Origin: Alcaligenaceae bacterium
Lineage (GTDB): Bacteria > Pseudomonadota > Gammaproteobacteria > Burkholderiales > Burkholderiaceae_B
Direction of reading: 5' to 3'
Length of the DNA: 24,000 nt
Assembly: GCA_012518515.1 (NCBI GenBank)
Contig: JAAYRZ010000153.1
Location: 60,189 to 84,188 of the forward strand
How positions within the stretch are numbered: the stretch's first letter is position 1; every line of letters starts with the position of its first letter. Under the pieces are notes generated by a model that ran no database searches, was not told where the DNA came from, and was given only the letters and a program-made list of their open reading frames with translations. Positions 1-11,460 of the stretch are shown here, in pieces. The position numbers and the translations under genes are program-made.

Positions 1-512
1 TAGGCAAAGTATTAGACGACCTCAAAGAGATGGGTTTCGAGTACATTATCTGTGATTCACCTGCTGGTATAGAAGCTGGAGCACTCACAGCAGCATATTA
101 CGCGGATGATGCCTTGGTAGTAACTAACCCAGAGGTTTCCTCTGTACGTGACTCAGATCGGATTCTTGGTATTCTTTCTTCAAAGTCCAAACGCGCTGTC
201 AGCTCAGAAGAGCCGATTAAGGAGCATTTGGTCATTACCCGTTATAACCCTAGACGCGTCGAAGAAGGCGATATGCTTTCTATTAAAGACATTGAGGATA
301 TTTTACGTATCAACTTAATTGGCGTAGTCCCCGAATCTGACGATGTAATCCAAGCATCAAACACCGGTTCACCAGTGATTCATCTTAAAGAAAGCAATGT
401 AGCACAAGCCTATGATGATATTGTTGACCGCTATTTAGGTGCAGAAAAACCGATGCGCTTCACCACTCATGAAAAAGCCGGCCTATTTAAGCGTATTTTC
501 GGAGGTAAATAA
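1..512 (+). CDS. minD: Septum site-determining ATPase MinD, C-terminal ~170 codons (the gene starts upstream of the window; the frame is open from nt 3)
   Basis: The translation (..KVLDDLKEMGFEYIICDSPAGIE..TNPEVSSVRDSDRILGIL..IKEHLVITRYNP..FKRIFGG) follows the MinD C-terminal half almost residue for residue. It ends in the amphipathic membrane-targeting tail, and minE follows 3 nt later. Confidence 0.95.
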   Translation, partial: GKVLDDLKEMGFEYIICDSPAGIEAGALTAAYYADDALVVTNPEVSSVRDSDRILGILSSKSKRAVSSEEPIKEHLVITRYNPRRVEEGDMLSIKDIEDILRINLIGVVPESDDVIQASNTGSPVIHLKESNVAQAYDDIVDRYLGAEKPMRFTTHEKAGLFKRIFGGK

Positions 513-1728: not shown

Positions 1729-3402
1729 TTACTTTAAGGATTTAAAACGTATACGTCGTGGTTTTGCCGCTTCCTGACCTAAGCGTTTCTTTTTATCTTC
1801 TTCATACTCTTGATAATTACCTTCAAAGAAATAGACTTGCGAGTCTCCCTCAAAGGCTAAGATATGCGTTGCAATTCGGTCTAAGAACCAGCGATCATGG
1901 CTAATCACCATCACCGTCCCAGCGTACTCCAGTAAGGCATCTTCAAGAGCACGAAGAGTTTCCACATCAAGGTCATTTGAAGGCTCATCCAGTAATAAAA
2001 CATTCCCGCCACTAATGAGAGTTTTAGCTAAATGCAAACGGCCACGCTCACCACCAGATAACTCACCCGTTATTTTGCTTTGATCAGAACCTTTAAAGTT
2101 AAAACGGCCTAAATAAGCACGTGAGGACATCTCAAAACGGCCAACATTAAGGATATCCTGACCATCAGCAATCACCTCAAACACTGTTTTATCGTCCTCA
2201 AGACTATCACGAGATTGATCGACATAGGCTAATTGCACCGTTTGACCAATTTTGACCTCGCCACTATCGGGCTGCTCTTGACCTGCAATCATCCGGAATA
2301 ACGTCGACTTACCGGCACCGTTGGGCCCAATGATGCCTACAATTGCACCAGCCGGAACCCTGAAGCTTAAATCATCGATTAGAATACGCTCACCGAAGCC
2401 CTTGCTGACATTTGAAAACTCAATGACTTCCTGACCTAAACGCTCAGCCACAGGAATAAAAATCTCCTGAGTTTCATTACGACGCTGATACTCATGTGAC
2501 GAGAGCTCCTCAAAACGAGAGAGGCGCGCTTTTGATTTCGCCTGACGAGCTTTAGGATTTTGTCTTACCCACTCCAACTCTCTTTTAATAGTGCGTTGAC
2601 GTGCGCTTTCTGCCGCTTCCTCTTGCTTTAAGCGGTCCTCTTTTTGTTCAAGCCAAGAAGTATAATTACCCTTCCATGGAATGCCATGCCCACGGTCTAG
2701 CTCTAAAATCCATTCGGCCGCATTATCGAGAAAATAGCGATCGTGCGTCACTGCCACTACCGTACCCGGGAACTTCTGTAAAAAAATCTCTAACCACTCT
2801 ACACTCTCAGCATCGAGGTGGTTGGTAGGCTCATCTAACAGCAACATATCCGGTTTAGATAACAGCAAGCGGCAAAGCGCTACACGTCGCTTTTCGCCAC
2901 CAGACAAATGCTCAATCTTGGCATCCCAAGGGGGTAAACGTAAGGCATCAGCGGCAATCTCTAACTGATGATCAATATCATCACTACCGCCAGTAGCGGC
3001 AGCAGCAATTATAGCCTCTAACTCAGCTTGTTCAGCCGCTAAGGCATCAAAATCCGCATCAGGTTCAGCGTAATCAGCATAAACTTGATTCAGACGCTTA
3101 CGTGCCGCAAAGACCTCACCTAAGCCCTCTTCTACCGATTCGCGGACCGTATGCTCCGCATTCAACTGTGGCTCCTGAGGCAAATAACCAATACTAATAC
3201 CAGGCATTGGAATAGCTTCACCATCAATTTCCTTATCGACACCTGCCATAATTTTCAATAAGGTCGACTTTCCCGAACCATTAAGGCCTAGCACACCAAT
3301 CTTTGCACCAGGGAAAAATGATAAAGAGATGTCTCTTAAAATTTGACGTTTTGGTGGGACTGTTTTACCCACACGATTCATTGTGTAAACAAATTGCGCC
3401 AT
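1729..3402 (-). CDS. ettA: Energy-dependent translational throttle protein EttA (ABC-F family ATPase)
   Basis: 557 aa. The N-terminus [49 protein letters not shown] is near-identical to E. coli EttA/YjjK. There are two ABC cassettes (two Walker A, two LSGGE signatures) and no TM domain. Confidence 0.95.
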
Positions 3403-3576: not shown

Positions 3577-4146
3577 ATGAAGAAAGTATTTACAGATGAC
3601 GAACTCGAGGTTTTAGCCAAAACTGCTGATGTCCTTAGCGCATGGACAGGCAAGTGCGTGCTTTGCGAGAAAAACATTACCGATGAAGGCGTTGAGGTTG
3701 CCATCTTTGCCCAAGTTCTAGATCAAGATGATATAGGCCAAACTGCTGACGCAGATGAAGCCGAAGAGGCACACGCAATCGAAGACAAGGAAGAAGGTCA
3801 ATTTTTGCTGTTAGGCGGTGCCGATTCAAGCATTCTCGGTAATGCTGGTGGTTTATCCGACATCAATACTCAAGTCTATGAGTGTCGCCTTTTATTCAGC
3901 ATTATGTTTAATGCCGAGGAAGGTCAATTTGCTGAACGTTTTATCTTGGTCAACGACGAGTTTGAATTAGTTACTAGCTCAGACGAACTAGAAGAGCTCG
4001 TTCCTTTCAGCCTCAGAGAGGTTGACGACCTTGATGACTGGGATGATGACGATTGGGACGACCATGACGATGATGACGAGCTCAGTGATGAGGAATGGCT
4101 TGAACGTCACCGACTACCGCCTGACGACAAAGATAGCACTCACTAG
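3577..4146 (+). CDS. Hypothetical hyper-acidic protein with a C-terminal Trp/Asp repeat tract
   Basis: 189-aa ORF starting at ATG in an AT-rich divergent promoter region. By my hand count it has about 57 D/E against about 12 K/R. I recognise no family. The coding call rests on ORF length, position and a lack of competing ORFs. Confidence 0.65.
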   Translation: MKKVFTDDELEVLAKTADVLSAWTGKCVLCEKNITDEGVEVAIFAQVLDQDDIGQTADADEAEEAHAIEDKEEGQFLLLGGADSSILGNAGGLSDINTQVYECRLLFSIMFNAEEGQFAERFILVNDEFELVTSSDELEELVPFSLREVDDLDDWDDDDWDDHDDDDELSDEEWLERHRLPPDDKDSTH

Positions 4147-5302: not shown

Positions 5303-5443
5303 CTACTTAAGCTTATTAGCCTGATTGACTTTTTCTAACATCTTCCAAACACCTTTTGGAGAAGTTGCGTATAAACGCTTCAACTCTTTGCTAATGCAAC
5401 GACGCTCTAAGGTATTGCGGCTCGTACGCTTAATTTCTGCCAT
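5303..5443 (-). CDS. Unlisted 46-codon ORF encoding a very basic small protein (MAEIKRTSRNTLERRCISKELKRLYATSPKGVWKMLEKVNQANKLK)
   Basis: Hand-translated. ATG is at 5443-5441, an AGGGG SD lies 6 nt upstream, the TAG stop is at 5305-5303, and a strong terminator lies 36 nt downstream. It is below the length cutoff of the supplied ORF track. I recognise no family. Confidence 0.5.
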   Translation of the reverse strand: MAEIKRTSRNTLERRCISKELKRLYATSPKGVWKMLEKVNQANKLK

Positions 5444-5739
5444 GTCTTGCCCCTAAACAATATTAAACAATAAAATAATTTTTATTAAAAAACCATAGGT
5501 AATCGGTAATTTTATCATAACTTAGCTAAATACACTATATTAAGCATTGTTTTTAATAACTTAATAAGAAAAAAGTCATTATTAGTCTAATAGCTGATTC
5601 ATAATGATTCCAAAGGCGCTACTCAGCTATTCATACTTGAAAAATAGCACTTAGCCCTCATTTATAGTGATTAAAAAGCCTCTTAAAATCCCCCTAAACC
5701 CTTGAGCAACCAAGTCTTTGGGTATTGAGTAAACGTCCT

Positions 5740-8700
5740 ATGTCATCACAAATTCGTATTTTCGGCGCACAGCAAAATAATCTTAAAAATCTAGATTTAG
5801 CAATCAATACAGAAGAAATTACTGTACTAACCGGTGTCTCAGGCTCTGGTAAAAGCTCACTGGCTTTTGATACCTTATATGCAGAAGGTCAGCGCAAATA
5901 CGTTGAAACTTTCTCACCTTATGCGCGTCAATTCCTAGACCGCATGGATAAACCACAGGTAGAGCGTATTGAAGGCATCCTTCCCGCGATTGCCATTGAT
6001 CAGACCAATCCCGTACGTACCTCCCGAAGCTCTGTCGGCACCATGACTGAGTTAAATGACCACATCAAATTACTTTTTGCTCATTCTGCCAATCTATATT
6101 GTCGCCAATGCGCATCCCCAGTACATCAGGACAATATTCAATCGATACAAGAACAACTAGCAACTCTAAGCCAAAAACAAAATGATCCTAGGTTAGTTCT
6201 GTGTTTTCCAATCCTCGTGCCGGCCAATTTTACGGATGAAGAGGTTAAAGCCTTTTTAGAACAACAAGGCTATACGCGTATTCATAAAGAGGAAGAAGTC
6301 AGTCGTCAAGTCATCGATAAAAAAAGCAAAAAGACCAAACTTGAACTGATGAAAAAATTGTACGTAGTACAAGACAGGTTTCGTTTTTCTAAGGCAGAAC
6401 CCGAACGGGTCGCTGAAGCGTTAGAACACGCCCTAAACCATGGCCAAGGATTTTGCAGAGTTTATGCAGCCCTTGAGAGCGGTGAGGAGATCGTCTGGCC
6501 TTTTAGTCAACAGCTTCACTGCGCTCCTTGTGATATATCCTATCAAAAGCCACATGCTAGTACTTTTTCTTTTAACTCACCGATAGGTGCCTGTGATCAT
6601 TGTCGGGGCTTCGGTCGTAGTATGGGCATAGATTATGGCCTAGTCATTCCCGATGAAAGCTTGAGTTTAGCCAATGGTGCCATACGGCCTTGGCAAACGC
6701 CTAGCTTCAAAATACAACAAGATGACTTGATGAAATACGCTAAAAAAACAGGGATTCGCACCGACACCCCTTGGCGTGAACTTAATGAAGCGGAAAGGCA
6801 ATGGGTTATCAACGGTGATCCCGAATGGACCGGTAAAAGAAACGCATGGGATCTGCAATGGTACGGCGCCCAACGATTTTTTGATTGGCTAGAAACAAAA
6901 TCCTACCGGATGCATGTACGCATTTTACTGTCTAAGTTTAGAAGCTATACACCCTGCCCTGTTTGTCAGGGTTCGCGCCTAAAAGCAGATGCCAATCTTT
7001 GGCGCTTAGGTGATGGACTACAACATGACTACGCAGAAGGCAACTACAAACGCTTTATGCCAGTAGCAGCACGTTGGTCCGAAACAACATTAGAACAGCT
7101 CCCAGGCCTCACTATCCATGATCTAATGCAATTACCCATTGGTCATTTAAGAGATTATTTTAACAGTCCCTACTTTGATGCTAATGCAGATAAAGCCAGT
7201 GAATTGGTATTGACTGAGATTAGACATCGCTTACGCTACCTTTGTGATGTCGGACTAGATTATTTATCACTAGACCGACAAAGTCGCACACTTTCTGGTG
7301 GTGAAGTCCAACGCATCAACCTCACCACAGCCCTTGGTACCTCTCTAGTCAACACCTTGTTTGTTCTTGATGAGCCCTCTATCGGTCTTCATCCACGTGA
7401 TATGGGACGTATTATCGAAGTCATGCAAAGATTGCGCGATGCGGGCAACACTTTAGTGGTCGTTGAACACGATCCACAAGTTATGGTGGCGGCGAATCGT
7501 ATTCTTGAAATAGGTCCCGGTCCAGGCGAACGGGGTGGTGATATTGTATTTGACGGCACCCCAGAAAAACTCCGTACCGCTAACACCCTGACTGGAAAGT
7601 ACCTGGGTAATGTTCTGCGTGTTGAAGCACCGCTCCCAATGAAGGTCAGTGATAAGACACCCAAATTATTACTGGAAGGTGTTAATGCGAACAATCTGAA
7701 AAATGTTGATGTTGCCTTTCCACTCAATCGCCTCGTCTGCGTTACTGGTGTGTCAGGCTCGGGGAAATCCACATTAATTCAGGATGTCTTGTACCCTGCT
7801 CTTTTAAAGCATTTCGGCGAACCAACAGAAGCCCCAGGAGAGTATCAACACTTACTTGGTGCTGAGCAATTAGCTTCTGTGGTGATGGTTGATCAAAGCC
7901 CCATCGGTAAAACAGCACGCTCAAATCCAGCTAGTTATGTTGGCGCTTTCAATGCCATCCGCAACCTATTTGCGCAAGCCCCCATGAGCCTTGAACGTGG
8001 TTATAAACCAGGTACCTTCAGCTTTAATACGGGTGATGGCCGGTGCCCTACCTGCAAAGGAACCGGTTTTGAACATATTGAAATGCAATTTCTCTCGGAC
8101 GTGTATTTACGCTGTCCAGACTGTCATGGTAAACGTTTTAGAGATGAGGTCTGTGAGGTACAAGTAGAACATTTAGGACAAGCCGCTTCAATTGATGAAG
8201 TCTTGGAAATGACAGTCCAACAAGCCTTAGACTTTTTTAAAGGATTAAGAGAGGTACAAACTGCTTTACAACCATTAATCGACGTCGGACTAGAATATGT
8301 CAAACTAGGCCAGCCAGTACCCACGCTATCAGGTGGGGAAGCCCAACGCCTGAAACTAGCCGGTCATTTGGCCGAAGCCTCACGCAGTCGTACTAAAGGC
8401 AAGCAATTAGCGCTCAAAGGCTCTTTATTTTTATTTGATGAACCCACTACCGGTCTGCATTTTGATGATGTGGCACGCTTAATGCATGCCTTTAGAAAGC
8501 TACTTGCGGCTGGTCATTCACTCATTATCATTGAGCACAACCTTGACTTAGTACGTGCCGCAGACTGGATTGTGGACTTGGGTCCGGGCGGCGGTGAGCA
8601 TGGTGGTCAAGTGATAGCTCAAGGTACTCCTGACGCTCTAAAAGGCATGGAGCATTCATTTACCGCTCAAGCGCTGGTTGCTTATGAAGAAGAGATTGTC

Positions 8701-11460: not shown

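Follow-up and report, generated by a model that had tools for sequence, protein, structure and literature searches.

What is a UvrA protein of double length for? The question is raised by a 24,000-nucleotide stretch of DNA from an Alcaligenaceae bacterium (GenBank assembly GCA_012518515.1, contig JAAYRZ010000153.1, positions 60,189 to 84,188 of the forward strand), called here the window, in which one gene, fused uvrA, encodes two UvrA-like units joined end to end. Is the product functional, and if so does it replace the housekeeping UvrA, act beside it in nucleotide excision repair (NER), or serve some other purpose? We are nearly certain that it is a functional fused UvrA and that it belongs to an old family centred on the Burkholderiales. 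Our fuller reading is that it is a single-chain UvrA heterodimer that would act as an asymmetric, UvrB-linked damage sensor, most likely in an auxiliary role; we put the probability of this whole explanation at about 0.55. The parts of the gene are listed below, the two halves being called the N-unit and the C-unit; ID stands for insertion domain and aa for amino acids.

5740..11460, plus strand: fused uvrA coding sequence, 1,906 aa plus stop.
5740..8694, plus strand: N-unit, full UvrA-like, aa 1-985, 42% identical to E. coli UvrA.
6112..6519, plus strand: UvrB-binding domain of the N-unit, diverged, aa 125-260 (PF17760, 37.9 bits).
6604..6954, plus strand: ID of the N-unit, the sole ID of the protein, aa 289-405 (PF17755 at aa 298-362).
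6979..7095, plus strand: family-specific insertion of ~39 aa in the N-unit, aa 414-452, after zinc module 2.
8695..8829, plus strand: linker between the units, of low complexity and hypervariable, ~aa 986-1030.
8830..11457, plus strand: C-unit, UvrA-like without an ID, aa 1031-1906, 46% identical to E. coli UvrA.
9208..9615, plus strand: UvrB-binding domain of the C-unit, well conserved, aa 1157-1292 (PF17760, 97.3 bits).
9700..9795, plus strand: remnant loop replacing the ID of the C-unit, aa 1321-1352 (CxxC spacing 32 aa).
Zinc modules of the N-unit: C121/124+C261/264, C285/288+C406/409, C769/772+C792/795.
Zinc modules of the C-unit: C1153/1156+C1293/1296, C1317/1320+C1353/1356, C1688/1691+C1711/1714.

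The open reading frame (ORF) list of the window gives a single open frame at 5725..11460 (plus strand) of 1,911 codons with a TTG start. We adopted the alternative ATG at 5740 as the start because the 1,906-aa product then begins with MSSQIRIF, matching the N-termini of its homologues. An initial annotation of this DNA had claimed that a single frame encodes two UvrA units, and both the 1,906-codon ORF and the profile matches of the two halves confirm it. Each half matches TIGR00630 over its full length (962 bits for the N-unit and 1,017 for the C-unit; cutoff 730), the whole protein scoring 1,973 bits on the same model; among solved structures, UvrAs match the N-unit at E = 1e-219 and the C-unit at 1e-241. 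On the UvrA equivalog model NF001503 the single units score 978 and 1,044 bits, both below the cutoff of 1,147; the whole protein scores 2,015 bits, and it is because this exceeds the cutoff that annotation pipelines call the fused protein UvrA.

A motif scan of the fused protein found four Walker A motifs (GVSGSGKS, at aa 32, 670, 1064 and 1587), four signatures (LSGGExQR, at aa 518, 863, 1434 and 1778), four Walker B motifs (DEP), four H-loops, and twelve CxxC pairs that make up six Cys4 zinc modules. All four ATPase sets and all six modules are thus intact, as had been claimed. The claim that both units are complete fared less well. In UvrA, zinc module 2 consists of two CxxC pairs with the ID lying between them. 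These pairs are 117 residues apart in unit 1 and 32 residues apart in unit 2, and the ID is therefore missing from the C-unit, which has a loop of about 32 residues instead; a Pfam search of the fused protein likewise returned no match to the ID family PF17755 in the C-unit. The same loss is seen throughout our conservation set of 74 full-length homologues (55-87% identical, drawn from the kept genome loci described below): the remnant is 22-46 residues long in all 74 C-units, and an ID of 111-117 residues, 62% conserved, is present in every N-unit (74/74). The UvrB-binding domain comprises 136 residues in each unit. To judge from its domains, then, the N-unit is a complete UvrA unit and the C-unit is one that keeps the UvrB-binding domain but has no ID. 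The two are only 34% identical to each other, and the confinement of the ID to the N-unit agrees with the suggestion, also made in the initial annotation, that fusion permits asymmetry between the halves. The insertion of about 39 aa that follows zinc module 2 of the N-unit is, according to the alignment, missing from E. coli UvrA and from the C-unit; it is found family-wide, with 40% identity.

How should such a protein be classed? Members of the UvrA family have two ABC (ATP-binding cassette) nucleotide-binding domains per unit, and these are present here. Class I is marked by a UvrB-binding domain within zinc module 1 and an ID within zinc module 2. The former is found in both units (PF17760); the latter is found in the N-unit (117 aa) and is reduced to a 32-aa loop in the C-unit, and the whole protein is therefore not two class I units. 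Class II UvrAs have lost zinc module 1 together with the UvrB-binding domain (PMC9328131; PMC3167621), both of which are present in both units of the window protein. An AlphaFold2 (AF2) model of the C-unit points the same way. Its UvrB-binding domain is folded (pLDDT, the predicted local distance difference test score, ~65-90), its ID remnant is modelled with low confidence as a loop nearly devoid of regular structure (pLDDT ~41-44), and the model as a whole matches class I UvrAs best, among them the UvrA-UvrB complex 3UWX (template modelling [TM] score 0.64-0.72); class II structures (UvrA2, Ecm16) fit less well.

Conservation argues for a working protein. Across the 74 homologues all four Walker A lysines are invariant, as are the Walker B glutamates and H-loop histidines save in one sequence that is gapped at site 4, so that alignment revealed no loss of catalytic residues. 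Neither unit shows any variation in zinc modules 2 and 3. The ratio of nonsynonymous to synonymous change (pN/pS), computed against the Oligella sp. orthologue with synonymous sites saturated, was 0.115 for the N-unit, 0.086 for the C-unit, 0.081 (pN 0.068) for the UvrB-binding domain of the C-unit, 0.174 (pN 0.137) for that of the N-unit, and 0.51 for the linker. Both units are thus held by strong purifying selection, and the earlier judgement that this is a functional protein rather than a decayed duplication is upheld by the essentially invariant catalytic sets and by pN/pS values of ~0.09-0.12. The linker, which is 18-69 aa long in the 74 homologues and has 7% identity to the window with 38% gaps, behaves as a flexible tether. 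The least conserved folded domain is the UvrB-binding domain of the N-unit (39% identity to the window, entropy 1.54).

Two departures from the general pattern may be recorded. The fourth ATPase site of the window protein reads 'DEPSVGLS' (aa 1818-1826, nucleotides ~11191-11217), the other three having 'GLH' at this point; in the alignments site 4 has 'GLH' in 63 of the 74 homologues and a His-to-Ser change in nine, apparently the Alcaligenaceae members. The other concerns zinc module 1. Its N-unit cysteines (121, 124, 261, 264) have been lost in 41 of the 74, which we infer to be Burkholderia/Paraburkholderia-type members, and position 1156 of the C-unit is Asp instead of Cys in 41 sequences, presumably the same ones. 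Because the N-unit cysteines are gone from so many members, zinc module 1 is evidently dispensable in the family; the Alcaligenaceae members, unlike these, keep all four.

Where did the fusion come from? Down to ~50% identity, the window N-unit has its closest relatives among the N-units of other fused proteins; the C-unit has its own among C-units. For a neighbour-joining tree we added canonical single-unit UvrAs (E. coli, Azospirillum, Bacillus, Streptomyces) and a class II protein of Deinococcus. In this tree 93 of 100 bootstraps recover the N-units of the window family as a clade and 98 of 100 its C-units; only 7 of 100 put both sets into one clade. Duplication in place, an origin that the initial annotation had raised for testing by a phylogeny of the halves, is not borne out, since N- and C-units fall in separate clades. 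Because these clades are mirror images in topology, the fusion is old and has been passed on as one gene, and is not a recent duplication in place. In another fused family the N-units branch next to canonical single-unit proteins, and tandem class II forms are separate again; since these other fused families branch elsewhere, fusion has arisen several times. In conserved core columns both window units have an identity of 46-50% to class I UvrAs. The corresponding identities to E. coli are 68% for Azospirillum, 66% for Streptomyces, 57% for Bacillus and 48% for the class II protein, and both units are therefore as distant from housekeeping UvrA as class II is. Any grouping of the window units with class I has a bootstrap below 20.

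The fused architecture turns out to be widespread. When 1.84 billion cluster representatives (50% identity) were searched with the C-unit, the best 150 matches were nearly all proteins of 1,600-2,300 aa, and double-length UvrAs make up more than 100 clusters at 50% identity. We assembled 107 double-length proteins (101 representatives, the window protein and five Alcaligenaceae homologues), split them at the Walker A motif, and aligned them to E. coli UvrA. The layouts were as follows.

N-unit complete, C-unit with UvrB-binding domain and without ID (the window type): 45/107.
Both units complete: 30/107.
Both units class II-like: 17/107.
Other combinations: 15/107.

Some UvrA-like cluster representatives exceed two units in length (P0124 and P0128, with 2,334 and 2,343 aa, and P0213, with 2,166 aa), and several cluster-search matches have 5-8 matched stretches; these are possibly triple or extended fusions. 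One protein, P0185 (914 aa), looked like a C-unit relative existing on its own but proved to be a fragment on a 3.1-kb contig.

In a species-representative genome collection (one genome per species) relatives occur at at least 547 loci. Of these, 80 were kept as family loci, and all 80 span residues 1 to ~1,905. Among them are Oligella sp. (87%) and O. urethralis (85%), other Alcaligenaceae (Advenella, Alcaligenes, Castellaniella, Paenalcaligenes, Candidimonas), and Burkholderia, many Paraburkholderia, Trinickia, Comamonas, Rhodoferax, Polaromonas, Vitreoscilla and Rhodocyclaceae; the gammaproteobacterial loci are from Steroidobacteraceae and Lysobacterales. The family is thus found mainly in Burkholderiales and in some Gammaproteobacteria. 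The closest named protein is that of Oligella ureolytica (89% identity), and the window is accordingly from a species of Oligella. In a plasmid collection the full-length gene (58% identity, 100% coverage) is present on ~2-Mb megaplasmids in 134 Ralstonia records, and the fused gene also occurs on the megaplasmid of Mycetohabitans rhizoxinica. In Cupriavidus CH34, which has a uvrA2 (Rmet_4549), no match to the fused form was found in the 150 kb of the record examined.

A deposited Ralstonia record annotates the fused gene as 'Excinuclease ABC subunit A, dimeric form'. The architecture is therefore common, and recognised and named in annotation, and near-identical sequences are already public. 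The initial annotation had described fused UvrAs as a recognised class in a few proteobacteria; the recognition is real (the 'dimeric form' name and an NCBIfam model of 1,809 positions attest to it), and 'a few' is wrong, given the numbers of loci and clusters above. A full-text literature search found no paper describing tandem-fused UvrAs. The window gene is best described as an ordinary member of a large, already annotated and biochemically unstudied family.

Plasmid searches brought up a further group. Among the 919 plasmid records that match overall are hundreds of Enterobacter, Klebsiella, Escherichia, Acinetobacter and Pantoea plasmids with a short single-unit UvrA-like gene of ~700 aa. 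Its matches begin at about residue 300 of the query, it has a class II-like look, and many of the plasmids are conjugative.

How might a protein of this kind work? When the canonical homodimer is on damaged DNA, one ID serves as the recognition-ID and the other as the support-ID; contact of the ID with DNA and docking of UvrB are mutually exclusive on one protomer; and an asymmetric UvrA2UvrB1 complex precedes UvrA2UvrB2 (PMC11985968). We propose that the two units of the fused protein fold back on each other like the protomers of canonical UvrA2, giving an intramolecular pseudo-dimer, from which it would follow that the stoichiometry is fixed. The ID-bearing N-unit would then be the 'recognition' side on DNA, and the C-unit, with no ID to compete with UvrB docking, would be a permanently open UvrB-loading side. 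In effect the protein would approximate a hard-wired asymmetric UvrA2UvrB1 intermediate that passes lesions to excision by UvrB and UvrC. The link to UvrB comes from the presence of PF17760 in both units and its better preservation in the C-unit (97.3 versus 37.9 bits), from the folded state of this domain in the C-unit model, and from the closer structural match to class I than to class II. We give this mechanism an even chance of being correct. A stricter version, in which the single ID of the N-unit always takes on lesion recognition and the ID-less C-unit serves as a constitutive dock from which a single UvrB is loaded, at a fixed side of the lesion, strikes us as speculative. Were it true, strand choice and A2B1 stoichiometry, which a symmetric homodimer must set dynamically, would both be encoded in the gene, and Burkholderiales would have gained a second, mechanistically distinct entry into excision repair.

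Several observations weigh against this picture of an auxiliary, UvrB-linked sensor. The AF2 model of the C-unit has a mean pLDDT of 69.5, which is only moderate. No LexA box (CTGT-N8-ACAG) lies upstream of the fused uvrA; the one site with a single mismatch lies within the gene itself, and fewer sites were found than chance would give. The literature searched holds no experiment on any fused UvrA. Because the UvrB-binding domain of the N-unit is weakly conserved, only one UvrB site may work. Finally, the gene occupies a conserved chromosomal site in Alcaligenaceae, even in genomes of ~2.3-2.9 Mb, a fact that fits a core function too, and if Oligella is without a canonical uvrA then the fused gene is its housekeeping UvrA and not an auxiliary one.

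This last point bears on what the protein does in the cell. In the family at large we consider that its most likely role is that of a second, auxiliary UvrA beside canonical uvrA. The family copy of Ralstonia is on a megaplasmid, and a published count gives R. solanacearum two uvrA genes (PMC518961, Table 2), which together suggest that the fused form is a second UvrA. The Burkholderia lata copy is on chromosome 3, and the name 'A subunit 1' given to that of Achromobacter A8 implies that a further copy exists. Together with the distance of both units from class I, as great as that of class II proteins, these cases argue against the idea that in Oligella the canonical gene has been lost and the fused protein does all housekeeping NER. 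They come from other genera, however, and none of them is from Oligella itself. In favour of that idea are the synteny that accompanies the conserved chromosomal position across Alcaligenaceae, the strong purifying selection on both units, the score of the whole protein on NF001503, and the existence of a 1,809-position model, NF001885, for double-length proteins. To our knowledge Chlamydia has a double-length UvrA as its only UvrA. On balance we think sole service in Oligella doubtful, if well worth keeping in mind, and prefer the auxiliary role.

It is also conceivable that the units do not pair with each other and that each instead finds its partner in another copy of the chain or in canonical UvrA, so that higher-order or mixed assemblies result. 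Some homologues have a linker of no more than 18 residues, which may not be long enough for intramolecular pairing everywhere. On the other hand, the mirror phylogenies show that the N-unit and its C-unit have coevolved without changing partners, and the pattern of one ID kept and one lost is constant across the family; from these two facts it follows most simply that the units work together within one chain. We therefore regard pairing between chains as improbable and retain the single-chain heterodimer.

Does the protein need UvrB at all? Class II UvrAs work without the NER machinery (PMC9328131), and the initial annotation had suggested a drug-protection role of the DrrC or Ecm16 type. The window family is likewise a divergent UvrA paralogue lineage, and tandem class II fusions do exist, making up the 17 class II-like proteins of the 107 above. 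Against this, the UvrB-binding domain is kept in both units, that of the C-unit being strongly constrained, and the top structural matches are class I. The surroundings of the gene are of a housekeeping kind, and in Oligella, Pelistega, Achromobacter and Ralstonia no biosynthetic cluster or resistance context was found around it. A UvrB-independent role in DNA protection or drug resistance is accordingly without support, and we consider it distinctly unlikely. As for the notion that two adjacent uvrA genes have been mis-joined or that a duplication is in decay, it can be dismissed, with no point found in its favour, because the identical 1,906-aa product recurs without a break on 20 contigs from independent assemblies (ENA, Logan, JGI), always with the same neighbours, because 74 of the 80 kept loci give uninterrupted ORFs of 1,800-2,050 aa, and because catalytic residues are invariant and selection is purifying.

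Upstream of the fused uvrA lie a partial MinD, EttA, a family-2 glycosyltransferase and a 46-aa ORF; a Sir2-type gene, a TcdA-like ThiF protein, ChaC and pyridoxamine-phosphate oxidase (PNPOx) follow it. Features of the neighbourhood are:

30-512, plus strand: C-terminal part of MinD, cut by the window edge.
1729-3402, minus strand: EttA, an ABC-F translational throttle (1,000 bits).
3577-4146, plus strand: 189-aa ORF with no Pfam, NCBIfam or PADLOC match.
5303-5443, minus strand: 46-aa ORF (MAEIKRTSRNTLERRC...) between the glycosyltransferase and the fused uvrA, with no Pfam or NCBIfam match.
11472..12170, plus strand: Sir2/CobB-type NAD-dependent deacylase (PF02146, 4.6e-45; CobB-like NCBIfam matches).
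12161-12967, minus strand: TcdA-like ThiF gene, convergent, its 3' end overlapping that of the Sir2 gene by 10 bp.

Pelistega ratti preserves the series glycosyltransferase, small ORF, fused uvrA, ThiF, ChaC, PNPOx, and Achromobacter preserves part of it. The Sir2 gene starts 12 bp past the uvrA stop and is probably co-transcribed with it. It is missing at the corresponding position in Pelistega and Achromobacter, and is an Oligella addition rather than a conserved partner. Scans for promoters and terminators gave no more sites than shuffled sequence did. The 46-aa ORF is called as a gene in independent assemblies, and a 42-aa gene occupies the same position in P. ratti and Achromobacter A8. 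In P. ratti (CP047165.1; L003 1577-5069) about ten small same-strand genes of 58-137 aa, several of them of exactly 75 aa, lie in a row upstream of the glycosyltransferase; they have no Pfam match and are possibly a repeated small-protein family.

A defence system, either Sir2-associated or of the MADS type, was considered and rejected. The matches to mad3 and mad8 reflect generic ABC-ATPase similarity, because the neighbouring EttA matches them too. The Sir2 protein itself has no PADLOC match, and no defence partner genes are found nearby.

As a discovery, the fused UvrA matters little, its architecture being common and already named. Its value is rather as a tool. The protomers of the canonical homodimer cannot be mutated separately, which makes it hard to assign roles to individual sites and domains in the asymmetric hand-off of lesions to UvrB; the fused protein would be a natural single-chain heterodimer in which four ATPase sites and the accessory domains can be altered singly. 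Moreover, the C-unit ID has been lost throughout the family, which suggests that function requires no more than one ID per dimer.

How, then, does the window protein compare with known systems? Another double-length protein is that of the NF001885/PRK00635 model ('excinuclease ABC subunit A'), which has four ATPase sites like the window protein and whose lineage we take to be Chlamydia-type. Membership was tried and rejected, the window protein scoring 1,164.9 bits against a cutoff of 3,054, and the same cutoff is failed by five other double-length representatives. With 1,165 bits against 3,054 the window family is therefore a lineage independent of NF001885. Class II UvrAs (D. radiodurans UvrA2, DrrC, Ecm16) resemble the window family in being divergent paralogues that can coexist with canonical UvrA, and differ from it in that the window protein keeps the UvrB-binding domain in both units. 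The canonical class I homodimer (E. coli UvrA; PDB 2R6F, 3PIH, 3ZQJ, 3UWX) has the fold, the motif set and the UvrB-binding domain in common with each unit; in the window protein, by contrast, two different units stand in one chain, with one ID per 'dimer'. Closest is the 'dimeric form' of the Ralstonia solanacearum megaplasmid (A3768_5169), which is 58% identical over 100% of the length, has units in the same N and C clades, and likewise combines a complete N-unit with a C-unit that has no ID. Unlike the Ralstonia copy, the window gene apparently lies on the main chromosome, among housekeeping genes, and its host belongs to another genus.

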